DNA of 64,000 bases, taken from Bacteroidia bacterium. Lineage in GTDB: Bacteria; Bacteroidota; Bacteroidia; UKL13-3. A program made the translations under genes and the position numbers. Positions 2,387-34,392 of the stretch are shown here, one piece after another; position 1 is the stretch's first letter; each line of letters opens with the position of its first letter. The stretch lies in assembly GCA_020049855.1 (NCBI GenBank), contig JAGVLJ010000044.1, positions 5,900 through 69,899 on the forward strand. Direction: 5' to 3'. A model generated the notes under the pieces. That model was not told where the DNA came from and ran no database searches. It worked only from the letters and a program-made list of their open reading frames with translations.

Positions 2387-3771
2387 TAACCAAGCTTATC
2401 AAAACGCGCCTGAAAAAAACGCAGGTATTTTGGTTCGTACGCCATTTTTAATCCTTTTATTTTATGCCTTTTTTTAAATACATTATATGTCGATTCGGCA
2501 ATTACGTCCATATGGGCTTGAGTATACACCCTGCGAGGGATAGTGAAACGCACAAGCTCCAGTTTGGGGTAATAATTTTCGCCATTTGCTTTTCTTCCGG
2601 CCGAAACAATACCTCGCTCCATGGTACGCACCCCTGAGTCAATATAAATTTCGGCTGCAAGGGTTTGTGCCGGATATTGATCCTGCGTAAGGTGCGGGAG
2701 AAATGCCTTGGCGTCTACAAATATACCATGTCCACCTATAGGTTTCACAATCGGGATGCCGTAATCTAACATTTTATTTCCAAGGTATTCAACCTGTCCC
2801 ACCCTAGCCTGTTGGTGAAAATCATCTAAACTCTCCACAATACCAATGGACATGGCTTCCATATCTCGGCCGGCAAGCCCGCCATATGTATGTAATCCTT
2901 CATAAACCACCACCAGGTTACGGGCATCTTCATATACATCCCATTCGTTGGTGGCTAAAAATCCTCCTATATTTACAAGAGCATCTTTTTTGGCACTCAT
3001 GGTTGCTCCATCGGTTTGCGAACAGATTTCTTTTACAATTTGAGCAATACTTTTATCCTTGTATCCTTTTTCGCGCTGTTGAATAAAGTAAGCATTTTCT
3101 GCTACGCGGGTCATGTCATGAATTATACGTATGCCATTCTTTTTGGCGTACGCTCTCAGTTCTTTCAAATTTTTCATGCTTATGGGTTGACCACCGGCCA
3201 TATTTACATTTGTGGCTATACTTACGTATGGAATTCGTTTGGCTCCATATTTTTTTACTACTTTATCAAGTTTGTCAAGGTCAACATTTCCTTTAAAGGG
3301 ATGGGAATTCAGCGGGTCGTGAGCCTCGTCAATAATAATATCCGTAAAAGTTCCACCTGCTAATTCCTGATGGAGGCGGGTGGTGGTAAAGTACATATTG
3401 CCTGGAATTACATTGCCTTTTTTAATTAATACTTTCGAGAGTATATTTTCGGCTCCACGCCCCTGGTGGGTGGGAATGATGTATTTGTAGCCATAGTATT
3501 TTCTGATGGTTTCTTCCAGATGAAAGAAGTTGCTGCTTCCGGCATAGGCTTCATCGCCCACCATCATCCCGGCCCATTGGCGGTCGCTCATGGCACTGGT
3601 TCCGCTATCTGTAAGCAGGTCAATATATACATCGGCAGATTTGAGCAAAAAGGTGTTGTATCCAGCATCTTTAATTGCTTTTAGGCGTTGAGTCCGGGTG
3701 GTCATTTTTAATAACTCCACCATTTTCATCTTATAGGGCTCGGCCCATGATTTTTTTATTTGTGTTTTCAT
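2386..3771 (-). CDS. beta-eliminating lyase (tryptophanase / tyrosine phenol-lyase family, PLP-dependent)
   Basis: 461 aa; SAKKDALVNIGGFL PLP-lysine motif and overall TnaA/TPL-like sequence. The VNIGGFL variant looks closer to TPL than TnaA, so substrate is not assigned. Confidence 0.8.
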   Translation of the reverse strand: MKTQIKKSWAEPYKMKMVELLKMTTRTQRLKAIKDAGYNTFLLKSADVYIDLLTDSGTSAMSDRQWAGMMVGDEAYAGSSNFFHLEETIRKYYGYKYIIPTHQGRGAENILSKVLIKKGNVIPGNMYFTTTRLHQELAGGTFTDIIIDEAHDPLNSHPFKGNVDLDKLDKVVKKYGAKRIPYVSIATNVNMAGGQPISMKNLKELRAYAKKNGIRIIHDMTRVAENAYFIQQREKGYKDKSIAQIVKEICSQTDGATMSAKKDALVNIGGFLATNEWDVYEDARNLVVVYEGLHTYGGLAGRDMEAMSIGIVESLDDFHQQARVGQVEYLGNKMLDYGIPIVKPIGGHGIFVDAKAFLPHLTQDQYPAQTLAAEIYIDSGVRTMERGIVSAGRKANGENYYPKLELVRFTIPRRVYTQAHMDVIAESTYNVFKKRHKIKGLKMAYEPKYLRFFQARFDKLG

Positions 3772-3844
3772 AGGTTCAAAACTATGGGTTAGGGGTAGAA
3801 GCGACTATGACAATAGTCAATTTGATACCTGATTTTTCTTAGAC

Positions 3845-3885
3845 AAAAAACTGCCGTAGCGATTACATCCGCCACGGCAGCAAAA
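3845..3885 (-). terminator. Rho-independent terminator downstream of the fasciclin gene (minus strand)
   Basis: Minus-strand read is CTGCCGTGGCGGATGTAATCGCTACGGCAG followed by TTTTTTGT. The 7-bp outer stem has an inner GCG/CGC pairing. Confidence 0.5.
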
Positions 3886-3918
3886 ATTGATAAGTAAATT
3901 AGAGAAAAAAGTAGAAAA

Positions 3919-4494
3919 TTATTTTGCAGGAGGTAGCAATACCTGATCAATGATGTGAATTATACCATTGGATGCAGGAACGCTGGCCACAATATGAGCT
4001 CCATTAATGGTAGGTTTGCCATCCACCATTTTTATTTCTGTATTTTTCAAATTCACCATATTCAGTACACGTCCATCGGTTAGATCCTCTGGTTTAAGTG
4101 TACCCACAAAAACATGGTATTCCAAAATATTGCGTAAATCATTTTTAGCTTCGGGTTTTAATAAACCTTCTACGGTGCCGGCTGGTAATTTATCAAAAGC
4201 GGCATTTACGGGCGCAAAAACGGTAAATGGGCCTGCATTGGCCAGCACATCTACATATTCGGCTGCTTTTACTGCTGCTACCAACGTACTGTGGTCTTTT
4301 GAACCAATCGCAACTTTTACAATATCTTTTGCTGATACATCATCCTGAACAGCTGACTGACCTACCTGATTTTCTGCCGTGGCAGTTTCAGCAGTTTTGG
4401 TAGCATCGGCTTCATTTGTTTCGCTTCCACATGAAGAAACGGCAATAGTTCCTGTTAAAAACAGGGCGGCTGTGAGTATTTTTAGTGTTTTCAT
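3919..4494 (-). CDS. fasciclin (FAS1) domain lipoprotein
   Basis: 191 aa; signal peptide with lipobox Cys (VSSCGS) and a C-terminal FAS1-like region (ILEYHV..., GIIHIIDQVLLP). Confidence 0.7.
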   Translation of the reverse strand: MKTLKILTAALFLTGTIAVSSCGSETNEADATKTAETATAENQVGQSAVQDDVSAKDIVKVAIGSKDHSTLVAAVKAAEYVDVLANAGPFTVFAPVNAAFDKLPAGTVEGLLKPEAKNDLRNILEYHVFVGTLKPEDLTDGRVLNMVNLKNTEIKMVDGKPTINGAHIVASVPASNGIIHIIDQVLLPPAK

Positions 4495-4516
4495 TTTACG
4501 GTGGCTTTATTAAGTT

Positions 4517-4524
4517 CAAAGTTA
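4517..4524 (-). promoter_or_regulatory. candidate Bacteroidetes -7 promoter element (TAnnTTTG) for the fasciclin gene
   Basis: Minus strand reads TAACTTTG about 28 nt upstream of the ATG at 4494. This matches the Bacteroidetes sigma-A -7 consensus TAnnTTTG. Confidence 0.3.
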
Positions 4525-5235
4525 CTTGCGGGTGGTTTAATAAAATTGATGCAAGTCAATAAAAAAGCAGATTTTTCTCAATATAATGTATTCAGGGGTA
4601 CTTCTAAAGAATGTAATTTTATTGAAATCAAGTTAGGTGCACACTGGTAATGCTCTCGAATTTAAATTTCCTTTTATGCTTTAATCTCATCCTTAATTGA
4701 GTTTGTATCCTGTAATATGGTTCTGTATAAAAAAAGGAGCCATATTTGTTCAGTATGGCGTCTTCACTCGGAAACAATCATTTCCTGATTTTATCACCAG
4801 TGGGGTATAAGAAGGTATTTGGTGTGTGGAATTTAGCACAATAAACTGGTAAAGGTAAAACGGACATCTAACTTTGCGCTATGGGGCTTATTAAAATAAA
4901 CTTTTGCGCTACTTGTGGCTGTTCTCAAATCAAATTGCTTCAGAATATATTGGTTGGTCACTGTACTAGCGGTTGAGAAGCGAATTGTGTTTTTGAATTT
5001 TATGCCAATTACTTGTCAGTATTTTAGTTTGCTCTTTGAGGTACGGAATATTGTTTTTGCTTCTTCTTGTTTTTCTATCCATTTTGTTAACTAATATCTA
5101 TTTTATATAACATTTTTTGGCAACGAATTTTTTTGTTCGCAAATAGTTTTTGGAAATATTATTCAAGATGGAGTGCCTATCAAGTGAAATGATAGCTAGT
5201 GACCCCACGACACAATGTGGAGCTGCTTCTCCTTG

Positions 5236-8404: not shown

Positions 8405-8983
8405 TCATGTTTTTTTACTGAATAAAAAGTGTTCTATCCATAGAACTCCTGAAGAAATAAGGGCTGGAATAATAATAAAATATCCTCCGGTATCGGGTAG
8501 GGAGCCTGCAAGAAAATTAAGTAGCTCTTTATAGCCGATAAGGGGCGGCTGATAAGTCATTCCTGGTATTTTTATGGCAGCAGTAGGGTCAAGGTTATGC
8601 CCGTATTTATATTCCCAAAGCCAAAAATCAACGGAAGCAACGGCAGCAACAAGTATAAGAAAAGCGACCCATGCGAATAATGCTTTTCGGGTATTGAGGG
8701 CCGCAGCTAAAACTCCCCATATTATCATTATGCCCAGAAGTATCGGGAGTATTTTAAATTCGGGGAAATCTTCCACGTGAATCGTTTGCATTCCAATATA
8801 ATGGTTTAGGTTGTTAATCGAATTGATATCACCTTTGATACTATTTACCCAAATTTCCATTCTTAGCCCTTCAGGATATTGCGGAGCTTCCAGTTCAATT
8901 TTCCAAACGGAGGTAAAATAGGCTACGCCCATACTTAAGGCACATAGCAAAATAATAAGCCGGGAAGATGTTTTTAATTTCAT
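8405..8983 (-). CDS. small polytopic membrane protein, NosB-like (clade II nos cluster component)
   Basis: 192 aa with about 4 transmembrane segments directly downstream of nosZ. This position corresponds to nosB in clade II clusters. Confidence 0.4.
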   Translation of the reverse strand: MKLKTSSRLIILLCALSMGVAYFTSVWKIELEAPQYPEGLRMEIWVNSIKGDINSINNLNHYIGMQTIHVEDFPEFKILPILLGIMIIWGVLAAALNTRKALFAWVAFLILVAAVASVDFWLWEYKYGHNLDPTAAIKIPGMTYQPPLIGYKELLNFLAGSLPDTGGYFIIIPALISSGVLWIEHFLFSKKT

Positions 8984-11628: not shown

Positions 11629-11642
11629 TTGATATGAATCAG
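11629..11642. promoter_or_regulatory. FNR/CRP-family box (TTGAT-N4-ATCAg) in the divergent cytochrome c-nosZ / crp-fnr promoter region
   Basis: TTGATatgaATCAG matches 9 of 10 positions of the FNR consensus TTGAT-N4-ATCAA. It is centred about 76 bp upstream of the cytochrome c ATG and about 67 bp upstream of the regulator ATG. Confidence 0.45.
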
Positions 11643-11702
11643 AGTTGAGTGTGATTTTTATCAGTTTTTTTTGTTTTGGGATAAAACCCTTAGATTTACC
11701 GA

Positions 11703-12407
11703 ATGGCATTGAATAATAAACTGGATTGTACAAATTGCCAAACCCTCGGGCTTTCTGTGTTTTGCACCTTAACCCGTGAAGAAGTTGAGCAATTGAACAA
11801 TTATAAATCTTCATTTCACGTTAAAAAGGGGCAGTTAATCTTTTATGAAGAAAGTGAGCCCCCGGGCTTATATTGTGTACATCGCGGGAAGGTAAAGGTA
11901 TTTAAAACAACAAATGAAGGGAATATTCAAATATTGAGGCTGGCGAAAGACGGAGATATTATTGGTTATCGTTCTTTATTGGCCGGGGAGCAATACCGTG
12001 CTGCAGCCGAAGCGATTGAAGACTCGCAAATATGCCTAATTCCCAAACATTATATTTTTGAATTGCTGAATAAAAACATTCATTTATCGCTTAAAATAAT
12101 GGAAAATTTTGCCCGCGAATTGAAAACGGCAGAAAAGAAGAATGTTGATTTATTGCATAAAACAAGCAAGGAACGTCTTGCCGAGTCGTTGTTATTGCTT
12201 AGAGATACATTTGGGGTAAATGAACGAGGTTTTATCAATGTAGTTCTTAACAGGGAAGATATTGCCAATATTACCGGAATGGCCACCGAAACAGTGGTAA
12301 GATGTCTTCGAGAGTGGAATGAGGTTGGGGTAATTGATCTTGATAAAAAACTTATTAAAATTACAAATACTAAACAGTTGCTGGATATTGCCAACTTGAA
12401 GGACTGA
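11703..12407 (+). CDS. Crp/Fnr family transcriptional regulator (FNR-like; N-terminal Cys cluster)
   Basis: 234 aa; cNMP-binding-like beta-roll plus C-terminal HTH (NREDIANITGMATETVVRCLRE). Cys9/Cys12/Cys21 and Cys111 mimic the FNR [4Fe-4S] ligand pattern. Confidence 0.8.
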   Translation: MALNNKLDCTNCQTLGLSVFCTLTREEVEQLNNYKSSFHVKKGQLIFYEESEPPGLYCVHRGKVKVFKTTNEGNIQILRLAKDGDIIGYRSLLAGEQYRAAAEAIEDSQICLIPKHYIFELLNKNIHLSLKIMENFARELKTAEKKNVDLLHKTSKERLAESLLLLRDTFGVNERGFINVVLNREDIANITGMATETVVRCLREWNEVGVIDLDKKLIKITNTKQLLDIANLKD

Positions 12408-12417
12408 TTTCTATCAG
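12404..12417. promoter_or_regulatory. FNR-like box (cTGAT-N4-ATCAg) upstream of norC
   Basis: CTGATttctATCAG overlaps the regulator's stop codon and is centred about 67 bp upstream of the norC ATG. Confidence 0.4.
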
Positions 12418-12477: not shown

Positions 12478-12900
12478 ATGAGATTTGTAGTTAAAATTAG
12501 TATCCTGCTGGTTTTGGTGTGTTCTTTTGCGATGTACAGCGTTCACTTATACACCGATACTAAATTATTAAAAAAATCAACTCGGCTCACCGATGCAGCT
12601 TTTGAGGGGAAAATGATTTGGCAACAAAATAATTGTCAGTCGTGTCATCAGTTTTACGGACTGGGCGGATATCTTGGACCAGATCTCACCAACGTGTACT
12701 CAACAAAGGATAAAGGTACCGGGTATATTGGAATTATGGTGCAAAACGGAAGTATTACCATGCCGGCATACAAAATGAGTAAAACAGAAATTGAAAAGGT
12801 TACGGAGTTTTTGCGTTGTATGGATGAAACCGGCAAAGCTGATCCAAGAACTTTTAAAGCAACCGAGACCGGTAATATTACGCGTGAAGATGAACAATAA
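12478..12900 (+). CDS. norC: nitric-oxide reductase small subunit NorC-like (membrane-anchored mono-heme cytochrome c)
   Basis: 140 aa; N-terminal TM anchor. The segment MIWQQNNCQSCHQFYGLGGYLGPDLTNVYS closely resembles the conserved NorC heme-binding region, with a downstream Met (ITMPAY). Confidence 0.75.
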   Translation: MRFVVKISILLVLVCSFAMYSVHLYTDTKLLKKSTRLTDAAFEGKMIWQQNNCQSCHQFYGLGGYLGPDLTNVYSTKDKGTGYIGIMVQNGSITMPAYKMSKTEIEKVTEFLRCMDETGKADPRTFKATETGNITREDEQ

Positions 12901-14266
12901 ATCAACATTCTTTTTTGCCGATCGCTTATTTTTAGCTACTGCACTTTTAATGCTAATTGGAGTAGTTATTTATGGCTCATTGGCATCGGTTTACTACTTA
13001 GCTCCAGGCTTCTTGAAAAATTACCTTGGTTTCTCGCAGTTACGACCGTTGCATGTTACATCGGTTGTGTTCTGGATTCTGATGGCGGCAAGTGGAGGGG
13101 TCTATCACTCATTTCGAGAAGTAAAAATAAATCGCCTCATTCACACTCTTGCTCTTGCACATTACACCATATGGTTTGTAGCCCTGGTGGCTATTTTTAT
13201 GTCTTATTATAACGGTATTTTTGGCGGAAGGGAGTATTGGGAATTTCCGCCTAAGTATGCAGGGTTTATTGCTGCAGGCTGGTTCTTTTTTTTAGTTAGT
13301 TACCTGATTGTATATAGGTCATTGAAGCAATGGAGTGTTTATCATTGGATGTGGCTTACCGGAATTGTTTGCTTTCTGTTTACTTTTTTTGAAAATTACC
13401 TATGGATTTTTCCTTTCGTAAATAGGGATGCCGTTAAAGATCTTACTATTCAATGGAAGTCGAACGGATCTTTGGTAGGTTCATGGAATCAATTGGTGTA
13501 TGGGCTTGCATTTTACCTGATGGAAAAAATTTCGGGAGATAAACAAACTGCACGCTCCGGAATTTCATTTGCTATGTATTTTCTGGGGTTGTTTAATTTA
13601 ATGTTTAACTGGGGGCATCATATCTATACCTTACCCACGGCTTCCTACGTTAGGATCATTTCTTACGCGGTAAGCATGACTGAATGGATTATTTTCCTGC
13701 GGATTATTTTTTTATGGAAAAAAACCAATGCAGTCGCTGGAAAACCTGCTATGCGAATTTCTTTCGATTTTTTAAATTCATCAGATCACTGGATATTGTT
13801 GAACTTGTTTCTCGCATTACTCATGTCAATCCCGGCAATTAATATTTATACGCACGGCACACATGTTACGGTTGCTCATGCTATGGGAACCACTATAGGA
13901 ATTAATACCCTTATTCTTTTAGGTGTATCAGCTGAGATTATGAAGGGATCTTGCAATGAAACCAATTCGTATCCGGTTTTGAAAAGATGGCTAACCGTTA
14001 TGAATATTAGTTTAGGCGCAATGCTCCTCTCCCTATTAGTAGTTGGAGTGTTAAAAGGGGTTTGGCAAATGAATCCCAATCAGGGCTCATTTCAGCAAAT
14101 GATGCTGGGTTTTAGGCCTTATTTTATCCTCATGTTTTGTTCCGGAATTGGGTTGCTTGTTGCAGTAGCAGCAATAAGTGTAGTGATATTGCGAAGTTTT
14201 ATTTTGTGCTATACCAGAAAAAAGATGCCCGGCTATGGGTTTGGTTCTTTAATGAAAGAAGGATGA
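12890..14266 (+). CDS. norB: heme-copper-oxidase-family membrane protein, NorB-like NO reductase large subunit (NnrS-like not excluded)
   Basis: About 458 aa and 12 predicted TM helices; HH pair (GHHIY), H-x2-H-x4-H (HGTHVTVAH) and an N-terminal His. The preferred start ATG at 12890 overlaps the norC stop. The ORF track's 12791 start would overlap norC by 110 nt. Confidence 0.65.
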   Translation: MNNKSTFFFADRLFLATALLMLIGVVIYGSLASVYYLAPGFLKNYLGFSQLRPLHVTSVVFWILMAASGGVYHSFREVKINRLIHTLALAHYTIWFVALVAIFMSYYNGIFGGREYWEFPPKYAGFIAAGWFFFLVSYLIVYRSLKQWSVYHWMWLTGIVCFLFTFFENYLWIFPFVNRDAVKDLTIQWKSNGSLVGSWNQLVYGLAFYLMEKISGDKQTARSGISFAMYFLGLFNLMFNWGHHIYTLPTASYVRIISYAVSMTEWIIFLRIIFLWKKTNAVAGKPAMRISFDFLNSSDHWILLNLFLALLMSIPAINIYTHGTHVTVAHAMGTTIGINTLILLGVSAEIMKGSCNETNSYPVLKRWLTVMNISLGAMLLSLLVVGVLKGVWQMNPNQGSFQQMMLGFRPYFILMFCSGIGLLVAVAAISVVILRSFILCYTRKKMPGYGFGSLMKEG

Positions 14267-14321: not shown

Positions 14322-16118
14322 ATGAGTATTTCCCGCGTTCACCCCTTTCATATTCCGGTTATGGGTCTTTCATTTACTGTTGATACGCCTGTTAAGGTAG
14401 CTCGTTTCGGCATTTCTTCAGTAGTCTCTGTTATAGAAGATGAATTGGTAGAAAAAATGCGCAAGTATTATTGCGAGTCGCTTCAGCTGCCATACAAGCA
14501 TATTACCAAAACAGAACATGATTACCGGGCTAAGCGTATAACCGAATACCTAAATTTGCTCGATTTGATTGTAAAGAATCAATTGGCTATTCTAAAAAAT
14601 GAGCGGTTTGAAGAGGGGGCCGAAATTGTAAAATATTTCGAGTTGCTTCCTGAAAATGCTCCGTTAAAGCAAGTGTATCTTAAAATGAAACTTTCGTCAG
14701 GCTATGTAAAGCAAAAACTACAGGAGGAATTGCGTGCCGGTATTGTATCTGGGGATATTGATGTGAATATAATGACGAAGGTGGATAAAACAAACTACAC
14801 TCCTACCGGAGAACCTCTTTCGGTTGAGTTCAACGATGCCCTAGCAGCTTTACGTGGATTTGCTCAAAGTAACGTATCATCTTCTGTTGTATTTTCGGCT
14901 GGGTTAAATCCTAGGCTATACAGTTATTGCGAAACGTTCAATGATTTTTTCCCCGACAAAAACGGAGCCGTTAAGAAAAGAATTACCATCAAAGTTAGTG
15001 ATTATCGTTCAGCCCTTATACAGGGAAAATTCCTTGCAAAAAAAGGTCTTTGGGTTTCTGAATTTAGAATTGAATCAGGATTGAACTGCGGGGGGCATGC
15101 GTTCGCTACCGATGGGCTATTACTTGGGCCGGTTATGGAAGAGTTTAAAGCGAAGCGGGAGGAGTTGACAAATACGCTGTTTGAATTATGCAACCAAACA
15201 CTTAAAGAAAAGGGGCGTGATGCGTTTCCTTATGTTCCAAAACTTAGTATTACGGTTCAGGGCGGAGTAGGAACCTTTAACGAGCAACAATTTTTTCTCA
15301 GCTATTACAAAATGGATAGCATTGGCTGGGGCAGCCCGTTTTTACTGGTGCCTGAAGTTACTAATGTAGATTATGCTACCCTTAGTGAATTGGCCACTGC
15401 CAAACCCGATGATTATTATTTGAGCGATGCCTCTCCACTGGGTGTGCCATTTAATAATTTCAAAAAAAGTAGTTCAGAGGTGCAGCGTAAAGCACGTATC
15501 GAAAAACACCGAGCAGGTAGCCCGTGTTATTTAAAATTTCTTTCCTTTAATACAGAATTTACAGAAAAACCCATTTGTGTAGCTTCGCGGGAATATCAGA
15601 ATTTAAAAATTAAGCAACTTAAAACAAGCGGTGCTGATGAAAAGACCGTACAGCGTGAAATTGATTTGGTAACGGAGAAAGATTGTTTGTGTGAGGGGTT
15701 AAGCACATCAGTATTTATTGAAAAACATATTCCACACCCTCATAAACTTGCTGCTGTTACCATTTGCCCGGGTCCTAATCTTGCTTATTTTTCCGGGGTA
15801 TTCACGTTGGTGCAGATGGCCGGACATATTTATGGAAGAGGAAATTTACTCAACAGTGTGCCACGGTCCCATGTTTTTGTAAATGAATTGCGACTTTATG
15901 TAGATTACCTGAAAAGGGAAATTAGTAAAAACATTCTGGCACTTAGCAGCAAGAAAGAAGAATATTTTAATACATTTCGCAGCAACCTGCTTTCGGGTAT
16001 CAACTATTATATTAGCCTTCTTGATAAAATGCAGTTAGAAAAGGAATCATTAATCAACCAAATGAAAACCGAATTTGCCGAACTTGAACAACAGTTGGCT
16101 GGAATGATCACAGCTTAA
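14322..16118 (+). CDS. conserved hypothetical 598-aa soluble protein in the norCB operon (possible FMN/TIM-barrel-like motifs)
   Basis: Long uninterrupted ORF 55 bp after norB and 9 bp before the queD-like gene. Weak motif similarity only (VARFGIS, GLNCGGHAF, QGGVGT); no confident family assignment. Confidence 0.5.
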   Translation: MSISRVHPFHIPVMGLSFTVDTPVKVARFGISSVVSVIEDELVEKMRKYYCESLQLPYKHITKTEHDYRAKRITEYLNLLDLIVKNQLAILKNERFEEGAEIVKYFELLPENAPLKQVYLKMKLSSGYVKQKLQEELRAGIVSGDIDVNIMTKVDKTNYTPTGEPLSVEFNDALAALRGFAQSNVSSSVVFSAGLNPRLYSYCETFNDFFPDKNGAVKKRITIKVSDYRSALIQGKFLAKKGLWVSEFRIESGLNCGGHAFATDGLLLGPVMEEFKAKREELTNTLFELCNQTLKEKGRDAFPYVPKLSITVQGGVGTFNEQQFFLSYYKMDSIGWGSPFLLVPEVTNVDYATLSELATAKPDDYYLSDASPLGVPFNNFKKSSSEVQRKARIEKHRAGSPCYLKFLSFNTEFTEKPICVASREYQNLKIKQLKTSGADEKTVQREIDLVTEKDCLCEGLSTSVFIEKHIPHPHKLAAVTICPGPNLAYFSGVFTLVQMAGHIYGRGNLLNSVPRSHVFVNELRLYVDYLKREISKNILALSSKKEEYFNTFRSNLLSGINYYISLLDKMQLEKESLINQMKTEFAELEQQLAGMITA

Positions 16119-16127
16119 TACCTGCTT

Positions 16128-16550
16128 ATGCTCACTATTAATAAGATTTTCCATTTTGAAGCTGCCCACGCTATTGCAGGTTATCCGGGTTTATGCAGGC
16201 ATATTCACGGTCACCGTTACGAATTGCACGTTGGGGTTACTACCCATCAACTTGCCGATGGGATGATTATTGATTTGAAATTATTAAAAAAGTTGGTAAA
16301 TGAATTGGTGATTGATAAATTTGATCATGCTCTTATTGTGTCCGAAGCTGGGGCGGAGAAAAATAAAATGGTTAGCTCAGCCGCAGATCAGCGGTTGATT
16401 GTATTGAAATCAGAACCTACTGTGGAGTACCTTATTTTGGAAATAAAAAGCAGAATTGAACAAAATATACCCGCAAACATCCGGTTGATGAAGCTAAAGC
16501 TATACGAAACCCGCGATTCGTATGCCGAGTGGAATGCATCGGTTGGGTGA
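16128..16550 (+). CDS. 6-carboxytetrahydropterin synthase QueD / 6-pyruvoyl-tetrahydropterin synthase family
   Basis: 140 aa; FHFEAAH... and C-x3-HGH (CRHIHGH) zinc-binding signature of the QueD/PTPS fold. Confidence 0.7.
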   Translation: MLTINKIFHFEAAHAIAGYPGLCRHIHGHRYELHVGVTTHQLADGMIIDLKLLKKLVNELVIDKFDHALIVSEAGAEKNKMVSSAADQRLIVLKSEPTVEYLILEIKSRIEQNIPANIRLMKLKLYETRDSYAEWNASVG

Positions 16551-16732
16551 GATAGTCTAATCCGATTTGGGAATAAATTTTTTCTAACCGGGTAAGCTAA
16601 TGTAAACTCCTTAAATTTTTTTCAGTTTTACACACAAAATGCTAAGCAGTATGGTTGGCATTGGCAATGCAGTTTCACCACATCTGTCTAAAATTTGTCT
16701 CCTTTATGCCCCTTATCCATTTTCATTAGGGT

Positions 16733-17197
16733 TTAATTGTAGTCAAACTCAAATTGTGAATGCAACTGATGAATCCATTCATGTATTTGGCTAAAGGTTT
16801 CTTTGGCTTGTAAGTTCTTGCTGTTGTGTAATTCTTTTGATAGAGATTTTAACTTTTTTAGCTCTGACACAAGCGCATTGTTGCCTTCATTTTGGTCATG
16901 TAGCAGTGATTCCATTTTACTTACATGTTGATCTAATATATCGGCAAAAGCGTGGTATGGCTCATCATTAATTGCCTTTTTTTGTAAATCATAAAAATTA
17001 GTAATGCTGTTTTCTAACGAACGTAGTTCAAAGGTAATTTCTTGATTGAATCGCCACTTGTTTCCTTGTTTTACGGGTGTTGCTATGGCTGCTTCGTTGG
17101 AAACGGATAAATTAGTTTGGTCTGGCTGCCGGTTGCATGCAAGCATACTCAAACAAAGAGTGCTTAAACTTAAAAGGGTTAAACGCATTTGTGTCAT
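16733..17197 (-). CDS. hypothetical lipoprotein
   Basis: 154 aa; signal peptide with lipobox (MLACN). Directly follows nadB on the minus strand; start/stop overlaps it by 1 nt. Confidence 0.5.
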   Translation of the reverse strand: MTQMRLTLLSLSTLCLSMLACNRQPDQTNLSVSNEAAIATPVKQGNKWRFNQEITFELRSLENSITNFYDLQKKAINDEPYHAFADILDQHVSKMESLLHDQNEGNNALVSELKKLKSLSKELHNSKNLQAKETFSQIHEWIHQLHSQFEFDYN

Positions 17198-18801
17198 TAT
17201 ACAGAAATTGTGTTTTCAAATATATGAATCAATTGCTCATCAATACAAGGGATTGCAATAGATTTTACACCGTTACTTAGCTTCTTGGGGAAATCCCTTC
17301 TCAGGTGACAACCCCTGCTTTCTTTTCGTTTCCATGCGGCATCGGTTACCAAAAAAGCGGTTTGAGTACGGTTCATTTGTTCAATAAGAGCAGGAACTAG
17401 GCCGTACTTACGAATATTACTTTTTATTTCTATCATTTGTTGGGTGAGTACATTCTTAAATAATTTTAGCGTTGTCTCTGTTCTTATAATTCCGCAAAAA
17501 TTCCACATCATGTTTTGTAATTCTAATGGGCTGGCTGTTTGCTGAATTTGTTCATCATGTATTAAATTGGCGGGAGCAATATTTAGTAACGGTTTCCCGG
17601 AATATATTTGATCAACCAAATAGGTGGAAGTTAACCGACTGCAATTGTCAGCCATAACAAGTGCTTCGAGCAGTGAGTTACTTGCCAATCTGTTGGCACC
17701 GTGTAATCCGGTGCAGGCAGATTCTCCAATAGCTGCTAACCCTGGAATCGAAGTTTTGCCACTGGTATCTGTTAAAATTCCACCACAAAAATAATGAGCG
17801 GCTGGAACTACCGGAATCATTTGCCTGGCAGGGTTAACTCCAAATTGAATGCATTGAGAAAAGATATAGGGGAATTGATCGCTTAGCTCTTTTTCACTAA
17901 AAATTGTAGTATCCAAATAAACACATGGAATTTTCAGTAGCTGCATTTGATCGGCAATGGCTCTGGAAACAATATCTCTTGGGGCTAAGGATTCAAGTTT
18001 ATGGTATTGCTTCATAAAACTGCTTCCATTTGGTAGTTTTAATTCGGCTCCATATCCGCGCAATGTTTCACTAATTAAAAAGGAGTTGCCGCTTTTAGTG
18101 TAAAACATAGTAGGATGAAATTGTACAAACTCCATGTTTGACAATAAGGCACCAGCTCTCCATGCCATGGCATATCCGTCACCGGTGGCTCCGGCAGGGT
18201 TTGTATTTTGTTTAAAAATTCCTGCTGCGCCCCCGGTAGCAAGCACGGTTAAATTTGCCCTAATTAATACAAGTTCGTTGCTTGTCTTATTAATGGCCCA
18301 GGCTCCCACACATGTTTTATCTTTCATGTACAAATCTACAATCTGTGTATTTTCAATTACAGTAATGCTTTGGGTATGCTCAATTTTAGATGCAAGATTT
18401 TTTATCAGGTATTCTCCGGTTCTATCCTGTATATGCACCACTCTAGGGTTAGAGTGCCCTCCTTCACGCGACAGGTTCAAAGTGCCATCAGTATTTTGGG
18501 TAAAGTGAAGACCCTCTCTAAGCAATTTGGTGATTACTTCGGGTGCTTTGGAGAGTAGTTCCGTTACGGCATTTAATTCGCTTAAACCGTCTCCTGCTTC
18601 AATGGTGTCGGCTATATGTCTTTGTATGGAATCGCCCTGACTCATTACAGCAGCAATACCACCCTGCGCCCAAAAGGTATTGGAATCAAACAAATTATTT
18701 TTACAAACAAGGGTTACATTAGCCTTCGAAGAGACACTTAAAGCATAATACATTCCGGCTAAACCTGATCCGATAACCAGTATATGAGGACGTGAGTTCA
18801 T
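17197..18801 (-). CDS. nadB: L-aspartate oxidase
   Basis: 534 aa; FAD-binding N-terminus (ILVIGSGLAGMYYAL) and a succinate dehydrogenase/fumarate reductase flavoprotein-like core. Confidence 0.9.
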   Translation of the reverse strand: MNSRPHILVIGSGLAGMYYALSVSSKANVTLVCKNNLFDSNTFWAQGGIAAVMSQGDSIQRHIADTIEAGDGLSELNAVTELLSKAPEVITKLLREGLHFTQNTDGTLNLSREGGHSNPRVVHIQDRTGEYLIKNLASKIEHTQSITVIENTQIVDLYMKDKTCVGAWAINKTSNELVLIRANLTVLATGGAAGIFKQNTNPAGATGDGYAMAWRAGALLSNMEFVQFHPTMFYTKSGNSFLISETLRGYGAELKLPNGSSFMKQYHKLESLAPRDIVSRAIADQMQLLKIPCVYLDTTIFSEKELSDQFPYIFSQCIQFGVNPARQMIPVVPAAHYFCGGILTDTSGKTSIPGLAAIGESACTGLHGANRLASNSLLEALVMADNCSRLTSTYLVDQIYSGKPLLNIAPANLIHDEQIQQTASPLELQNMMWNFCGIIRTETTLKLFKNVLTQQMIEIKSNIRKYGLVPALIEQMNRTQTAFLVTDAAWKRKESRGCHLRRDFPKKLSNGVKSIAIPCIDEQLIHIFENTISV

Positions 18802-18802
18802 A

Positions 18803-19786
18803 TCAGGTAAATTCCATCATTTTTTTTATGGGCTGGTAGGCTTTATGAATTAATTCAGTGCTTAAATTCACCTCAAAATTATCCATTTTATCTACTCCTA
18901 TATGTTCCAGGATTTCCAGTGTTTTCAGCATGGATATTTTTTTCATGTGCGGGCATTTAATGCAGGGAGTTATGAATTCTTTTTCCTGATACATTGTTTT
19001 AAGAGTTGAACCCAAATCACACTCAGAGGCAAGTATAAAGCTGGTACACGAACTTTCTCCAACGTAACGAATAATATCATTAGTGCTGCCAAGTACACCG
19101 CCTGCGTTGGTTAGTGAATCCGATACCGTGGTATCCGGAACTTCCCAGTGTAATAGAAACTCCGAATTGGGGTATTGCATACGCAGCCCCTTGGCCATAT
19201 CGGAAGTAAATTGCTCGTGAACTTCGCATTTTCCATTCCATAGTATAAGGTCTTTTCCGGTTTCTTCTTTTACCTGCTTTGCTAAATTTTGTCCCATGTA
19301 TAAATCAGGAACAAAAATTATTTCTGGTGAATCTATCGAGCGGATGATGGCTAATGCATTTCTTGAGGTGCAACATACATCACAGGCGGCTTTAGTCTCT
19401 GCATAGGTATTGATATAAGCTACCACCGGAGTGTCGGGATATTTTGCCTTTAAGGCATTCACATCTGCTGCTGTAATGCTTGATGCCAGTGAACATCCAG
19501 CTTCCTTGTCAGGTATATAAACATGTTTATCCGGGCTTAAAATTTTGGCTGTTTCTGCCATAAAATAAACTCCGCAAAATATTATATGATCTGCTGTTGT
19601 TTTTGCTGCTTCCACACTTAGGCCTAATGAATCTCCCACAAAGTCTGCAATGCCCCCGGCCGTTTCCTTCAATTGTAAATCGGGGCTCATGTAGTAATGA
19701 GAAAGTATAACAGCATTCTTTTCTTTCTTTAGTTTGTTGATTCGGAGAATTAGTTCTTTTCCCGATATTATTGGTTCTTGTATCAT
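18803..19786 (-). CDS. nadA: quinolinate synthase
   Basis: 327 aa; NadA family (ILSHYYM..., conserved Cys ligands). 1 bp gap to nadB. Confidence 0.9.
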   Translation of the reverse strand: MIQEPIISGKELILRINKLKKEKNAVILSHYYMSPDLQLKETAGGIADFVGDSLGLSVEAAKTTADHIIFCGVYFMAETAKILSPDKHVYIPDKEAGCSLASSITAADVNALKAKYPDTPVVAYINTYAETKAACDVCCTSRNALAIIRSIDSPEIIFVPDLYMGQNLAKQVKEETGKDLILWNGKCEVHEQFTSDMAKGLRMQYPNSEFLLHWEVPDTTVSDSLTNAGGVLGSTNDIIRYVGESSCTSFILASECDLGSTLKTMYQEKEFITPCIKCPHMKKISMLKTLEILEHIGVDKMDNFEVNLSTELIHKAYQPIKKMMEFT

Positions 19787-19843
19787 GCGTGCAAAGATCT
19801 CCGCAATGGCAAATCAATACCATGATCTTAATCATTAATGAAG

Positions 19844-19857
19844 TTGATGATTATCAA
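19844..19857. promoter_or_regulatory. perfect FNR consensus box TTGAT-N4-ATCAA in the divergent nadA / peroxidase-pair promoter region
   Basis: TTGATgattATCAA matches 10 of 10. It is centred about 56 bp upstream of the 19907 ATG and about 64 bp upstream of the nadA ATG. Confidence 0.5.
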
Positions 19858-19906: not shown

Positions 19907-20644
19907 ATGAGGGGTTTAATAATTTATTGGGGTATCGGGTTGATACTATTTTCTTTTTTCTCGTGTCAAAGAAATAATCGAGATACGCCAAAACCTAAAG
20001 TGATTTCACCTATAAAGGTGGATATGAGTTTTAATGTGAACGGAGTTCCTTTACGGGTTGATACTATTCAATTTCGCAACCTTTCGGGAAATAGTTTTAG
20101 TATCACTCGTCTTGACTTCTATATTTCAAATATCGAAATTACTTCTGTTACCGGGGCTATTTATAAATCAACAAAATTTTTTTATGTAAGTGCTCGTGAC
20201 ACATCAACGTATCATTTTACGGTAAATGGTCTGCCACTCACAGGAATTACTTCATTTCGCTGCTGTATTGGCTTATCAGCTTCGCAAAATATCAGTAATT
20301 CATTAACACCCACACAGGCTAATTTGAATATGGCGTGGCCGGATAATATGGGGGGAGGATACCATTTTCTAAAACTCGAGGGGCATTACATTGCATCAAA
20401 TCTTCAGGTTTATGGTTATGCCATGCATTTAGGCAAAAATCAAAATCTGGTAGAGATTACTCTCTCAACTCCACTATACGAATCGCAAGTTTCAAATGGA
20501 ATAAAATTAGCAATGGATGTTGCCAAATGGTATAATGCGCCTGCTAAAATTGATTTGAACAATACCAATTACACTATGGGTATTGATAGCCTTATGGCTA
20601 AACTTTCGCAAAATGGAAAAAATGTTTTAAGCATAACAAATTAA
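19907..20644 (+). CDS. periplasmic lipoprotein partnered with a di-heme peroxidase (MbnP-like?)
   Basis: 245 aa; lipoprotein signal (FFSCQ). 3-bp gap to the di-heme CCP gene, the arrangement seen in MbnP-MbnH pairs. Family assignment is by context only. Confidence 0.5.
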   Translation: MRGLIIYWGIGLILFSFFSCQRNNRDTPKPKVISPIKVDMSFNVNGVPLRVDTIQFRNLSGNSFSITRLDFYISNIEITSVTGAIYKSTKFFYVSARDTSTYHFTVNGLPLTGITSFRCCIGLSASQNISNSLTPTQANLNMAWPDNMGGGYHFLKLEGHYIASNLQVYGYAMHLGKNQNLVEITLSTPLYESQVSNGIKLAMDVAKWYNAPAKIDLNNTNYTMGIDSLMAKLSQNGKNVLSITN

Positions 20645-20647
20645 GAT

Positions 20648-21691
20648 ATGAGATACATTGCTATACTTCTGTTTGTTGTTTTGATGATTAAATGCAGGCA
20701 AAAGGACAATATTGCAAATACGGACTACGGTGTTGATTATCCTACCCCGTATAATTTTCAGGTTCCTCAGGGTTTTCCTCAGCCCTACTTTTCATCTGAC
20801 AACCCGCTGACAAATGAAGGAGTGGATTTGGGTAAGCGACTTTATTCCGATGCAATTCTTTCATCAAACGGACTCAGTTGTTCGTCATGCCACAGGCGCA
20901 GTAAATCATTCTCCTCTCCTTATTATATTACACCTACTGGCGATAAAATCAGCATTCCTCCGCATATAAATCTTGTTTTTAATCCCGACTATAACTGGAA
21001 CGGCTCGATAACTAAACTTGAATTGCTGCCGATGGGTGATTTTGAACCGCAATTTTTTAATACCAATGCCGATACCCTTTTTTACAGGCTATCGCATCAC
21101 CCTCTTTATCCGCAGCTTTTTTTCAAAGCATTTGGAATAACAAATTTTTATACACTAAGCTACGAAGAGTTAAAAATGACTATTTGCAAAGCACTTGTTC
21201 AGTATATACGTACCATGGTTTCTGCCAATTCAAAACTCGATCGGTATCAACTTAAAGGAGGGGCACTCACTCAAGAAGAACATGATGGGATGTATGTGTT
21301 TTTCTCAGAGCGGGGAGATTGTTTTCATTGCCATGGCTATCCGCTTTTTAGTGATAACCTATACCACAATAACGGACTCAATAATCAGTTTATAGGACAG
21401 GATGCTGGTAGAAATCTAATCACTCATGCTGCTAGCGATTTGGGCATGTTCAGTACACCCACACTTCGCAATATTGAATTAACAGCTCCTTACATGCATG
21501 ATGGGCGCTATACTACTTTGGAAGAGGTTGTGGAGTTTTATAATTCGGGCGTAAAGTTTTCCCGCACCATCGACCCTATTATGACCAAACCGGGTAAGGA
21601 AAGCGGACTTCAACTTACTGCTTATGAAAAGTTGAGTCTGGTGGCTTTTCTTAAGACGTTAACCGATACTTCTTTTATTTCAGCTAAATAA
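20648..21691 (+). CDS. di-heme cytochrome c peroxidase (CCP/MauG/MbnH family)
   Basis: 347 aa; two heme c motifs (CSSCH, CFHCH) at the spacing typical of bacterial di-heme CCP/MauG. Confidence 0.85.
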   Translation: MRYIAILLFVVLMIKCRQKDNIANTDYGVDYPTPYNFQVPQGFPQPYFSSDNPLTNEGVDLGKRLYSDAILSSNGLSCSSCHRRSKSFSSPYYITPTGDKISIPPHINLVFNPDYNWNGSITKLELLPMGDFEPQFFNTNADTLFYRLSHHPLYPQLFFKAFGITNFYTLSYEELKMTICKALVQYIRTMVSANSKLDRYQLKGGALTQEEHDGMYVFFSERGDCFHCHGYPLFSDNLYHNNGLNNQFIGQDAGRNLITHAASDLGMFSTPTLRNIELTAPYMHDGRYTTLEEVVEFYNSGVKFSRTIDPIMTKPGKESGLQLTAYEKLSLVAFLKTLTDTSFISAK

Positions 21692-33867: not shown

Positions 33868-34392
33868 ATGAAAGCTCCGTTCAACTTACAACAATGGATT
33901 GCAGAAAATAAACATTTACTCAAACCTCCCGTAGCCAATAAAAACTTGTATCCCGAGGGAAGCGATTATATAGTGATGATTGTGGGCGGCCCGAATGCTC
34001 GCAAGGATTATCATTACAACGAAACAGAGGAGTTGTTTTATCAGTTAGAAGGCGAAATTACGGTAAGAACCCAACAGGATGGCAAAGCCGTTGATATAAA
34101 CCTAAAAGCAGGAGATATGTTTTTACTGCCTGCAAAAATTCCGCATTCTCCCGGTAGAACGGCAGAATCGGTAGGTTTGGTTATAGAGCGAGTTCGGGAA
34201 GGTAAAGGGTATACTGATGGACTATTATGGTTTTGCGAAAAATGCAACACTAAACTTCATGAAACTTATTTTGAGTTACAAAACATTGAAACCGATTTTA
34301 TCCCTCATTTTAAGCATTATTATGGGTCGGAAGAATTACGAACCTGTAAAAACTGTGGGCACGTGATGGAAACTGATCCGCGATTTATATGA
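33868..34392 (+). CDS. nbaC: 3-hydroxyanthranilate 3,4-dioxygenase
   Basis: 174 aa cupin; HAAO signature region (IVMIVGGPNARKDYHYNETEELFYQLEG, FLLPAKIPHSP) and a C-terminal Cys4 rubredoxin-like site (CEKC...CKNC). Confidence 0.85.
   Translation: MKAPFNLQQWIAENKHLLKPPVANKNLYPEGSDYIVMIVGGPNARKDYHYNETEELFYQLEGEITVRTQQDGKAVDINLKAGDMFLLPAKIPHSPGRTAESVGLVIERVREGKGYTDGLLWFCEKCNTKLHETYFELQNIETDFIPHFKHYYGSEELRTCKNCGHVMETDPRFI

Follow-up and report, generated by a model that had tools for sequence, protein, structure and literature searches.

FabX (HP0773) and UfaA (NGO1024) are acyl-ACP dehydrogenase/isomerases of unsaturated fatty acid synthesis that carry FMN and a [4Fe-4S] cluster. They bind acyl-ACP via a basic helix, dehydrogenate and isomerise decanoyl-ACP, and supply unsaturated fatty acids under conditions in which desaturases that need O2 are inactive. 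In cNOR-type NO reductases, the FeB site is serviced by NorQD, a pair of maturation factors of which NorQ is an AAA+ MoxR-type ATPase and NorD a VWA-domain protein with a MIDAS motif. Structurally, FabX combines FMN with a C-terminal [4Fe-4S] cluster and a catalytic His (PMC8626469). Its gonococcal homologue, NGO1024, shows 8-10-fold induction under anaerobic conditions (PMC3032703) and, according to work cited in PMC11300592, is required for anaerobic unsaturated fatty acid synthesis.

Organization of the locus

The window, a stretch of 64,000 nucleotides, contains four tightly packed + strand ORFs behind a Crp/FNR-type palindrome. They encode a cytochrome c, a haem-copper oxidoreductase (HCO), a 598-residue protein that we refer to as X598, and a QueD-like enzyme. 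The features discussed here are as follows.

2386-3771, - strand: tyrosine phenol-lyase (TPL; TIGR02618, 740 bits, cutoff 720.7)
3919-4494, - strand: fasciclin-domain gene (PF02469)
11630-11663: two TGAT-N4-ATCA sites in the divergent nosZ-operon/fnr promoter region
11703-12407, + strand: FNR-type regulator, cNMP-binding domain and Crp HTH (PF00027, PF13545)
12405-12416: Crp/FNR-type palindrome TGATTTCTATCA, 62 nt upstream of the cytochrome c gene
12478-12900, + strand: membrane-anchored mono-haem cytochrome c, small HCO subunit in a NorC-like position (PF13442, PF00034)
12890-14266, + strand: cNOR-related HCO large subunit, NorB-like (PF00115, 1.4e-23)
14322-16118, + strand: X598, 598 aa; predicted subregions are a helical insert (~40-140), a Cys-rich subdomain (C402, C419, C455, C457, C482) and a helical tail (518-593)
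16128-16550, + strand: QueD/PTPS-family (COG0720, T-fold) enzyme, 140 aa (PF01242, 2e-26)
16733-17197, - strand: lipoprotein-like ORF, 154 aa
17197-18801, - strand: nadB (TIGR00551, 524 bits, cutoff 453)
18803-19786, - strand: nadA (NF006878, 321 bits, cutoff 294)
19823-19856: two TGAT-N4-ATCA sites, 37-70 nt upstream of nadA

Although the HCO ORF is listed from a TTG at 12791, its alignment with eight homologues points to the ATG at 12890 as the start, so that it overlaps the cytochrome c gene by 11 nt. A gap of 55 bp separates the HCO stop (14266) from the X598 start (14322), and one of 9 bp separates the X598 stop (16118) from the QueD start (16128), on which a unit of nadA, nadB and the 154-aa ORF (16733-19786, - strand) converges. 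Inspection of the 55-bp gap for a Bacteroidetes-type internal promoter turned up nothing convincing. The sequence-only reading had described this four-gene arrangement with its overlap, its two gaps and an FNR-like box upstream, and each of these is confirmed here. That reading had also called the 598-aa frame clearly coding, which its homologues, ~60% identical across hundreds of species, bear out, and had placed it in one operon with the cytochrome c-HCO pair. X598 is plausibly co-transcribed with that pair at this locus.

The haem-copper oxidoreductase

The cytochrome c-HCO pair resembles the NorCB pair of cNOR in having a small cytochrome c subunit and a 12-TM HCO subunit encoded by overlapping genes, and the best PDB match of the HCO is NorB (4xyd), at only 1.3e-6. 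The cytochrome c, whose gene directly precedes that of the HCO in 8 loci, has a weak NorB_cytochrome_c-like match. Databases disagree on the large subunit, which JGI names NorB and NCBI names CcoN. Canonical cNOR NorB carries His207, His258, His259 and Glu211 as ligands, with a haem b3/b His-x-His, and this set was not found in the HCO. In an alignment of nine family members, the FeB position His207 is replaced by Asn, Met or Tyr, Glu211 falls in a gap and Glu215 becomes Asn. The motif 'AAHGH' likewise becomes 'VAHA--MG', with loss of the second His of 'HGH', whereas the HH pair is retained, as is the haem b His.

By its sequence, then, the HCO is not a canonical cNOR. The earlier naming of the two genes as an NO reductase norC-norB stands as far as the pairing and the NorB match go, but not for the FeB ligands, and the 'NorB' label is likely a mis-annotation that is corrected here. 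The absence of norQ and norD remarked on earlier is upheld, in that no AAA or VWA protein was found among 44 window ORFs scanned against Pfam, a set of ORFs of up to 1000 aa from the first 56 kb and a small part of 56-64 kb. Because the HCO lacks the cNOR FeB residues His207 and Glu211 and so is not a canonical cNOR, the puzzle of the missing NorQ/NorD largely dissolves. By description rather than by sequence, the HCO can be likened to the 'N2O red' family of Murali et al. 2024, a cNOR-related HCO family that Bacteroidota carry in settings of denitrification and that has been flagged as a possible N2O reductase (PMC11214002).

Sequence and predicted fold of X598

The sequence-only reading reported no confident family match for the 598-aa protein, and our searches of Pfam, NCBIfam and PDB sequences likewise returned nothing significant. 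Thirty-eight members of the X598 family gave no match in Pfam or NCBIfam even at E<=10, the NMO family (PF03060) included, and the family profile retrieved from PDB only spurious apolipoprotein matches to the helical tail. No VWA or AAA domain was detected in X598 in Pfam or NCBIfam at E<=1, in agreement with the earlier remark that no VWA/MIDAS motif is obvious; this result, together with the predicted fold, shows that X598 is not a divergent NorD, a possibility that had been raised. A signal peptide is absent. The family comprises at least 8000 clusters at 90% identity from at least 600 species, with members ~60% identical across orders, and is larger than the HCO family (3125 hits). Literature searches found no existing description of it, and it ranks among the larger protein families that so far have neither a domain model nor a name.

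An AF2 model of X598 (pLDDT 85.6, pTM 0.88) predicts a (β/α)8 FMN barrel of the NMO/IMPDH type, the fold expected of the NMO/FabK/FabX superfamily. The top five Foldseek matches to the model are all FabX, followed by PfaD, trans-AT ER, FabK and NMO. In the model, the helical insert (~40-140) forms a lid on the barrel. The signature residues are N149, S192-A-G-x-N-P197, E251...G-G-H259, Q313-G-G and G335-x-G-S-P-F...P-E345, and the positions of these motifs are at least 93% conserved in the 51 diverse members used for residue conservation.

Profile comparison with FabK gives a weak result that makes sense at the level of motifs. Default hhalign of the X598 family against FabK gave a probability of 0.2%, whereas greedy local hhalign (FabK from L008, L009 and L011) aligned VNI, (T)SAGNP, EAGGH, AAGGI and GSRF..PE colinearly with DVNIM, FSAGLNP, ESGLNCGGH, QGGVGT and GWGSPFLLVPE of X598, at E 1e-3 and a probability of 20%. 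The FabK identity of the L008 protein rests on a match to PDB 4iql at 9e-120. Neither the Pfam scan of the 38 members nor hhalign against FabK gave statistically significant similarity to the superfamily. The weak FMN TIM-barrel motifs noticed earlier (VARFGIS, GLNCGGHAF and QGGVGT) are present, occupy family-invariant positions and align with the FabK signatures, and the barrel at which they hinted is of the NMO/FabK/FabX type according to the model and Foldseek. The model is best read as placing X598 in a large branch, unnamed until now, of the NMO/FabK/FabX flavoenzyme superfamily.

C-terminal to the barrel lies a predicted subdomain of two strands and about six helices with five near-invariant Cys residues: C402, C419 and C457 are present in 51/51 members, C455 in 50/51 and C482 in 49/51, with spacings of x16, x35, x1 and x24. 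The Cys-rich loops have low pLDDT, and residues 346-598 modelled alone gave a poor model (pLDDT 61.8, pTM 0.37). Within the barrel, H259 is conserved in 50/51 members and C256 in 49/51.

Comparison with known flavoenzymes

X598 resembles FabX/UfaA in its NMO-type FMN barrel with a conserved catalytic His context, in a predicted C-terminal extension of the same two-strand, ~six-helix make-up with conserved Cys, and in its setting, as NGO1024 is induced anaerobically together with denitrification genes. It differs from FabX in that identity is just 14-17%, with no HMM-level relationship, and in being ~230 residues longer, by the helical insert and the helical tail. Its Cys spacing also departs from the Cx3Cx3Cx11C of FabX, and an extra invariant Cys, C256, stands beside the catalytic His. 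With FabK, PfaD and the trans-AT PKS enoyl reductases, which use FMN and NAD(P)H, X598 shares the colinear motifs VNI, SAGNP, (E)xGGH, GG(I/V)G and G(S/T)xF..E, but it lacks the NAD(P)H-binding C-terminal region of FabK and has in its place a Cys-rich subdomain, as FabX does. X598 has no match to PF03060, the family of the nitronate monooxygenases/2-nitropropane dioxygenases (NMOs). These enzymes use up O2, in contrast to the link of X598 with low-O2 regulation, and they carry no Fe-S domain.

Genomic context of X598

Conservation beside nor genes, which the sequence-only reading had made a test of its proposal, was examined across 82 homologous loci, and the HCO lies within 10 kb of X598 in only 8 of them. 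X598 is mostly monocistronic, and half of the loci (41/82) carry a low-O2/NO marker (cbb3, HemN, NnrS, RIC, Rrf2, NosZ or nadAB) within 10 kb. Rrf2 is present in 17/92 loci, and further neighbours include cbb3/HemN, NnrS, RIC, qNOR and OFOR/PFOR genes. We sought a fixed operon partner and found none: every neighbour family stays at or below ~30% of loci, and nadA, which comes nearest to such a partner, directly follows X598 in just 5/82, these being related loci. TPL and fasciclin genes, both present in the window, recur in 7/82 and 11/82 loci, respectively. In one locus (L093) X598, two TPL genes, cytochrome c and HCO form a single operon, and Rrf2-NrdDG is also present. Comparative genomics shows that X598 often lies within Rrf2-linked low-oxygen/NO islands.

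Several associations connect X598 with redox carriers or, indirectly, with acyl groups. One X598 is fused to a flavodoxin/FAD/NADPH diflavin reductase, and a fusion to a PlsC-type acyltransferase occurs in two samples. A 4HBT hot-dog thioesterase is found in 6 loci. Three loci (L087, L090 and L092) have an operon of a U32-family protein, ferredoxin and X598, which in L090 and L092 also includes a PNPOx-like protein before X598 and in L087 is followed by PFOR, and OFOR and GltD-like genes lie upstream of X598 in an Emticicia group. A genuine FabK coexists with X598 in L008 and L009, which rules against X598 as a second FabK copy or housekeeping enoyl reductase. X598 was also rejected as NadC, there being no QPRTase among its fold matches.

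Putative regulation by Crp/FNR-type sites

The TGAT-N4-ATCA core occurs five times in the 64 kb, against 1.45 expected, and all five sites fall in three promoter regions of the cluster. The pair at 19823-19856, one of which is a perfect TTGAT-N4-ATCAA, is common to nadA and a divergent mbnP/mbnH-like pair. The window holds both 3-HAO, of the O2-dependent quinolinate route, and nadAB behind FNR boxes. The FNR-type regulator has an N-terminal Cys cluster (C9/C12/C21) and matches NF008365 Fnr at 5.6e-29, below the cutoff. The TGATTTCTATCA site presumably controls the cytochrome c-HCO-X598-QueD unit.

Between -160 and -30 of X598, the motif is exact in 16/78 loci and present with at most one mismatch in 45/78; in 346 other promoters from the same loci, the corresponding frequencies are 2.9% and 13.6%. 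The same motif precedes cbb3 ccoNO in 6/6 cases. This motif enrichment points to X598 as a core gene of a Crp/FNR-type (TGAT-N4-ATCA) regulon in Bacteroidota and their relatives. Shared motif and neighbourhoods together argue for co-regulation of X598 with denitrification and low-O2 genes, as had been anticipated.

Proposed role of X598

We propose that X598 is a cytoplasmic FMN/Fe-S oxidoreductase of a hypoxia/NO regulon, possibly an O2-independent, FabX/UfaA-like acyl-chain dehydrogenase, an assignment whose chances we judge to be about even. The Cys-rich C-terminal subdomain would bind a [4Fe-4S]-type cluster, which may pass electrons one at a time to or from the flavin, with ferredoxin, flavodoxin, quinone or a similar external carrier at the other end. 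The chemistry would most likely be an O2-independent dehydrogenation or reduction of the C=C/C-C bond beside a thioester carbonyl, and the substrate could be an acyl-ACP, acyl-CoA or acyl-lipid, as in FabX/UfaA. Since electron transfer from acyl dehydrogenation to ferredoxin or NADP+ is uphill, the ferredoxin and diflavin links fit X598 as a reductase at least as well. Acyl chemistry fits the collecting of O2-independent substitutes by the island (nadAB, HemN, NrdDG, cbb3 and TPL). Against it, the neighbours of X598 are heterogeneous with no fatty-acid synthesis gene as a consistent partner, and Bacteroidota depend heavily on branched-chain lipids, which counts against a FabX-like reading. Were X598 an enzyme of O2-independent desaturation, it would explain the membrane fluidity of FabA-less, desaturase-dependent aerobes during denitrification and would carry FabX-type chemistry well outside the Epsilonproteobacteria and Neisseria. 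What the analysis adds for the family is a predicted fold along with probable cofactors, a set of conserved catalytic residues, likely redox partners and membership of a regulon.

A different function, which we regard as doubtful, is that of a nitrosative-stress FMN/Fe-S reductase, fed by ferredoxin or flavodoxin and under NsrR-like Rrf2 control, that clears or repairs NO-derived nitro/nitroso compounds. Candidate substrates would be nitronates, nitroalkenes such as nitro-fatty acids, or nitrotyrosine-derived nitrophenols downstream of TPL. The fold is common to nitronate monooxygenases and nitroalkane oxidases, but the closest structural neighbours of X598 are acyl-ACP enzymes rather than NMOs, and characterised NMOs need O2, a poor fit with FNR control. 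Among the neighbours, Rrf2 with a C-x6-C-x5-C motif (17/92 loci), RIC/YtfE (10), NnrS (7), truncated globin (6), hemerythrin-like proteins (4), qNOR or HCO, a PNPOx/Nim-like small flavoprotein directly upstream of X598 (6) and TPL, sometimes duplicated, all speak for a role in NO defence, yet about half of the loci lack an NO marker and many sit in cbb3/HemN hypoxia clusters. The ferredoxin, PFOR and diflavin reductase links do favour the reductive direction. This role is a speculation from context, and we know of no such reductase of NO-derived nitro/nitroso compounds.

It is rather improbable that X598 is instead an O2-independent substitute for some other step, whether a tetrapyrrole (e.g. 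protoporphyrinogen) dehydrogenase beside HemN or the redox part of a U32-family (TrhP/UbiU-like), ferredoxin-dependent anaerobic hydroxylation. HemN and ccoI/ccoNO flank X598 in ~8 Sphingobacteriaceae loci; X598 also shares the three U32-ferredoxin operons described above and has a prephenate-dehydrogenase-like gene directly upstream in three Pedobacter-type loci, and the island does gather the anaerobic isoenzymes nadAB, NrdDG and HemN. Each of these associations, however, is found in fewer than 10% of loci, the U32 and HemN links may merely reflect shared regulation, and to our knowledge no fold relative of X598 carries out tetrapyrrole dehydrogenation or U32-linked hydroxylation.

Very improbable, finally, is the original proposal, in which X598, alone or with the QueD-like protein, would stand in for NorQ/NorD as an accessory factor dedicated to the NorB-like enzyme and would insert cofactors, help maturation or deliver electrons: the tight same-strand packing here, the position of X598 in or adjoining cytochrome c-HCO operons in L024, L089, L091 and L093 and the lack of NorQ/NorD in the window ORFs scanned favour it, as does QueD directly after HCO in some relatives, but ~90% of X598 loci have no HCO, the X598 family outnumbers that of its supposed client, X598 usually has its own Crp/FNR-type promoter motif and is mostly monocistronic, it is found alongside qNOR or cbb3 as well, or in loci that have neither of them, it is a predicted cytoplasmic, enzyme-like flavoprotein, and the FeB site on which NorQD acts is missing from the HCO. 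As cNOR-type enzymes receive electrons from the periplasmic side and X598 has no signal peptide, electron delivery suits it no better, and a dedicated role for the adjacent HCO is unlikely. X598 as an FMN/Fe-S oxidoreductase would, in the operon found here, be expressed together with the HCO rather than serve it.

The QueD-like enzyme and the wider island

The gene after X598 had been read as a QueD/PTPS-family member with a CxxxHGH motif, an assignment that its PF01242 match and complete catalytic set (C23-x3-H27-G-H29, H14, D66-H67 and E127) sustain. The 140-aa protein thus has the CxxxHGH motif, Zn-binding His, Asp-His dyad and Glu of QueD/PTPS (COG0720), but its score against TIGR03367 QueD (74.5 bits) is under the equivalog cutoff of 89.25, and no other que gene was found among the window ORFs scanned, where a QueD could be expected to lie with queC, queE or folE. 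Its match to PDB 7v0f (CPH4 synthase) is at 2e-7. The gene encodes an intact COG0720 pterin enzyme and belongs to the same stress island as X598; its product may be CPH4 or another pterin.

Tentatively, we suggest that X598, the QueD-like enzyme, an Fe-S Rrf2, the PNPOx-like flavoprotein, the U32/ferredoxin pair and TPL may form an undescribed hypoxia/NO module that is widespread in Bacteroidota, Ignavibacteria and relatives. X598 would then represent a new class of ferredoxin-linked FMN/Fe-S enzyme, being either the missing O2-independent monounsaturated fatty acid route of FabA-less aerobes or a reductase of NO-derived nitro-lipids/nitro-aromatics; this combination seems to us possible. Soil and freshwater Bacteroidota hold much of the N2O-consuming clade II nosZ capacity, and the genes that nosZ-bearing Bacteroidota switch on under low O2/NO bear on their survival and respiration there.

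A pterin gene in this setting had been thought unexpected, which the relatives contradict. QueD directly follows HCO in L006, L029, L089 and L091, and beside NOR or X598 it recurs as the first gene of a pair with Rrf2, an Fe-S-type regulator. In 6 of the 7 homologous loci sampled, this QueD-Rrf2 pair has X598 nearby.

X598 as a branch of a known flavoenzyme superfamily

The 598-aa protein that we call X598, a handle that also covers its family, is encoded in a same-strand gene cluster of the window:

11703-12407 (+), FNR-type regulator
12478-12900 (+), mono-haem cytochrome c
12890-14266 (+), haem-copper oxidoreductase large subunit (HCO), NorB-like
14322-16118 (+), X598, 598-aa ORF
16128-16550 (+), PTPS/QueD-family gene, 140 aa

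Its homologues number at least 8000 (1045 representatives at 50% identity), are ~60% identical and are all annotated 'hypothetical'. At least 600 species genomes carry them, from Cytophagales, Chitinophagales, Sphingobacteriales and some Flavobacteriales to Ignavibacteria, Chlorobiota and Acidobacteriota MAGs. X598 has no significant match in Pfam, NCBIfam or PDB, in agreement with the sequence-only reading, which had found neither a confident family nor an obvious VWA/MIDAS motif. The family profile run against PDB gave apolipoprotein matches to the helical tail only, which we judged spurious, and PF03060 matched none of 38 family members at E<=10. A 602-aa ORF (L065 1475-3283, -) in an Acidobacteriota MAG, ~7 kb from X598 and with no Pfam match, was considered as a paralogue and rejected by tblastn.

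The structure-based comparison that the sequence-only reading had suggested was run on a predicted model, and its hunch of an FMN barrel holds: the best relatives are FabX, NMO, PfaD and enoyl reductases. H. pylori FabX scores 27.2 over 324 aligned residues, followed by the NMO/NADH:quinone reductase PA1024 (22.9), TM0800 (22.4), PfaD (21.4), the enoyl reductase DfnA (20.8) and IMPDH/GMPR (about 15). With Foldseek, FabX fills the top five places, and PfaD, trans-AT enoyl reductases, FabK and NMO come next. FabK sequences (loci L008 and L009) were found with a FabK probe sequence and confirmed against P. gingivalis FabK (9e-120). Default hhalign fails to align the X598 and FabK families; a greedy alignment (E 1e-3, probability 20%) places all FabK/NMO signatures colinearly, and these residues are kept in at least 93% of 51 diverse X598 members.

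Signatures of X598 and FabK paired in the greedy alignment
DVNIM: FAVNV
VFSAGLNP: VFTSAGNP
ESGLNCGGH: EGFEAGGH, catalytic His
QGGVGT: AAGGIAT
GWGSPFLLVPE: QIGSRFVASPE

Outside the barrel, X598 adds an insert of helices (residues ~40-140), a long helical tail (518-593) and, at ~350-505, a subdomain built from two strands and six helices. This subdomain carries conserved cysteines: C402, C419 and C457 in 51/51 members, C455 in 50/51 and C482 in 49/51. Among characterised relatives, only FabX has an Fe-S subdomain at its C-terminus, with Cx3Cx3Cx11C as the ligands (PMC8626469). The X598 spacing differs from this pattern; by analogy, we infer that the subdomain would bind an Fe-S cluster. X598 is predicted to be cytoplasmic because inspection of its N-terminus revealed no signal peptide and a conserved motif begins at residue 7. 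X598 represents a new branch, so far without a name, within a known flavoenzyme superfamily. Its architecture is distinctive and it clearly belongs to a hypoxia/NO regulon; we hold the fold and regulon parts of this reading with high confidence.

X598 and a Crp/FNR-type low-oxygen regulon

The gene order, the 55-bp and 9-bp gaps, the CxxxHGH motif of the QueD-like protein (LCRHIHGH) and an FNR-like box had all been described from the sequence alone, and each was found in the window; the box is the Crp/FNR-type palindrome TGATTTCTATCA at 12405-12416, 62 nt upstream of the cytochrome c gene. The 64 kb hold five exact copies of the core TGAT-N4-ATCA where 1.45 would be expected, and no shuffle reached five. 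All five sites (11630-11663; 12405-12416; 19823-19856) belong to promoters of the denitrification cluster, in three regions: those of nosZ/fnr, cyt c-HCO-X598-QueD and nadA/mbnP; site 19844-19857 is a perfect TTGATGATTATCAA common to nadA and the divergent mbnP-like gene.

Among 78 loci, the core 30-160 nt upstream of X598 is exact in 16 and within one mismatch in 45, compared with 2.9% and 13.6% of 346 other intergenic promoters from the same loci; cbb3 ccoNO promoters carry it in 6/6. This enrichment argues that X598 belongs to the core of a low-oxygen regulon of the Crp/FNR type. Across 82 X598-centred loci with 10-kb flanks, 41 hold at least one low-oxygen/NO marker. The commoner neighbours are Crp-family regulators (24), cbb3 ccoNO (16), Rrf2 (11), fasciclin (11), RIC/YtfE (10), HemN (8), NnrS (7), truncated globin (6) and hemerythrin-like proteins (4), along with CcoI. 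Tyrosine phenol-lyase (TPL) occurs in 7 loci, nadA in 7 (directly downstream in 5), nadB in 6, QueD-like genes in 6 and clade II nosZ in 5.

Proposed chemistry of X598

Several clues bear on the reaction. In one natural fusion, encoded after an operon for a Nar-type Mo-enzyme, X598 is joined to a diflavin reductase (flavodoxin/FAD/NADPH), and ferredoxin with PFOR, or OFOR with GltD-like genes, run in the same direction as X598 in two unrelated groups. A small PNPOx-like flavoprotein gene lies directly upstream in 6 loci. On the acyl side, acyl-ACP thioesters are the substrates of all the closest structural neighbours, a hot-dog 4HBT thioesterase occurs in 6 loci, and one fusion, found in two samples, is to a PlsC-type acyltransferase. 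The gonococcal FabX homologue NGO1024, annotated '2-nitropropane dioxygenase', is induced 8-10-fold anaerobically alongside aniA (PMC3032703), and is cited in PMC11300592 as reportedly required for anaerobic unsaturated-fatty-acid synthesis, its electron acceptor unknown.

The island gathers O2-independent substitutes, and relatives add HemN, NrdDG and cbb3. In the window, 3-hydroxyanthranilate 3,4-dioxygenase and an ACMSD-like amidohydrolase (33868-35411) form an O2-dependent route to quinolinate, and bona fide nadA and nadB (17197-19786) lie behind two FNR-type palindromes; together they resemble paired routes to the NAD precursor, one aerobic and one anaerobic.

These clues favour an O2-independent FMN/Fe-S enzyme. 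We propose that X598 would act as a dehydrogenase or reductase on an acyl-type substrate, and put forward an acyl or unsaturated-fatty-acid function only tentatively. A reductase acting on nitrosative damage is a live rival, since the ferredoxin and diflavin links suit reduction no less than dehydrogenation.

The nor-like operon and the QueD-like gene

The sequence-only reading had suggested that X598 may be an accessory factor for this NO reductase. The survey does not support this: cyt c-HCO pairs occur in only 8/82 loci and X598 is mostly monocistronic, the nor-like operon being one of several landing places.

The longest HCO ORF starts at TTG 12791; homologue alignment places the start at ATG 12890 instead, giving an 11-nt overlap with the cytochrome c gene. 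The best PDB match is cNOR NorB, at only 1.3e-6. Nine family members conserve the haem b His and the HH pair. Unlike cNOR NorB, they have N, M or Y at the FeB ligand His207, lack Glu211 and carry Asn for Glu215; 'AAHGH' becomes 'VAHA--MG', so that 'HA--M' replaces the 'HGH' haem-ligand motif. The family is named NorB at JGI and cbb3 CcoN at NCBI, and may belong to a cNOR-related family for which work on Flexibacter canadensis led to the proposal of an alternative N2O reductase (Murali et al., 2024; PMC11214002). Because the HCO has no canonical FeB site, we infer that the absence of NorQ/NorD among the 44 window ORFs scanned requires no substitute factor.

The pterin gene, once thought unexpected, belongs regularly to the X598 island. 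The QueD-like protein has the full COG0720 catalytic set and scores 74.5 bits, below the QueD equivalog cutoff of 89.25. In seven QueD-homologue-centred loci, picked solely by length of available sequence, a QueD-Rrf2 dicistron lies <8 kb from X598 in six.

Arrangements in loci from other genomes
L086: QueD-Rrf2 divergent from qNOR
L089, L091: cyt c-HCO-QueD-Rrf2, X598 divergent; L091 also nadA-nadB
L087 (2503-5882), L090 (3511-7826), L092 (4079-7948): QueD-Rrf2 divergent from a U32-ferredoxin-(PNPOx-like)-X598 operon
L093 (HCO-centred): X598-TPL-TPL-cyt c-HCO-ProDH; also RIC, MbnPH, Rrf2-NrdDG

The conserved operon of L087, L090 and L092 encodes, besides X598, a U32 peptidase-family protein (TrhP/UbiU-like), a 73-aa Fer4_15 ferredoxin and, in L090 and L092 and absent from L087, a 142-147-aa PNPOx-like protein; a 4HBT thioesterase precedes the L090 operon and PFOR follows that of L087. 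Rrf2 proteins of these islands carry C-x6-C-x5-C, as Fe-S sensors of the NsrR and IscR kind typically do.

Additional observations

X598 fusions lie at L083 3042-6545 and L084 7107-10052, one with the diflavin reductase, preceded by genes for a Mo-oxidoreductase, a Fer4_11 protein and a NarJ-like chaperone, and the other with the PlsC-type acyltransferase; a TetR-X598 fusion (P0138) is also present. In L093 an Rrf2 gene lies directly upstream of nrdD-nrdG, the anaerobic class III ribonucleotide reductase (15849-19333). A 154-aa ORF (16733-17197, -), lipoprotein-like at its N-terminus, shares 1 nt with the nadB stop codon and has no match in Pfam or NCBIfam and no homologue among the 82 loci; a 192-aa ORF between nosZ and nosL (8405-8983, -), placed as a clade II nos accessory gene would be, has no match in Pfam or NCBIfam. 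Divergent from nadA, and sharing its FNR sites, are an MbnP-like gene (PF20243) and an MbnH/MauG-like di-haem peroxidase gene (19907-21691), presumably a pair for copper acquisition, which recurs beside the HCO operon of L093. In the window, the stretch 2386-4631 holds a fasciclin-domain gene followed by one for tyrosine phenol-lyase, whose product exceeds the TIGR02618 cutoff, and two near-FNR boxes (4546 and 4618). Elsewhere, too, each of the two genes is a recurrent neighbour of X598, with TPL duplicated in L090 and L093.
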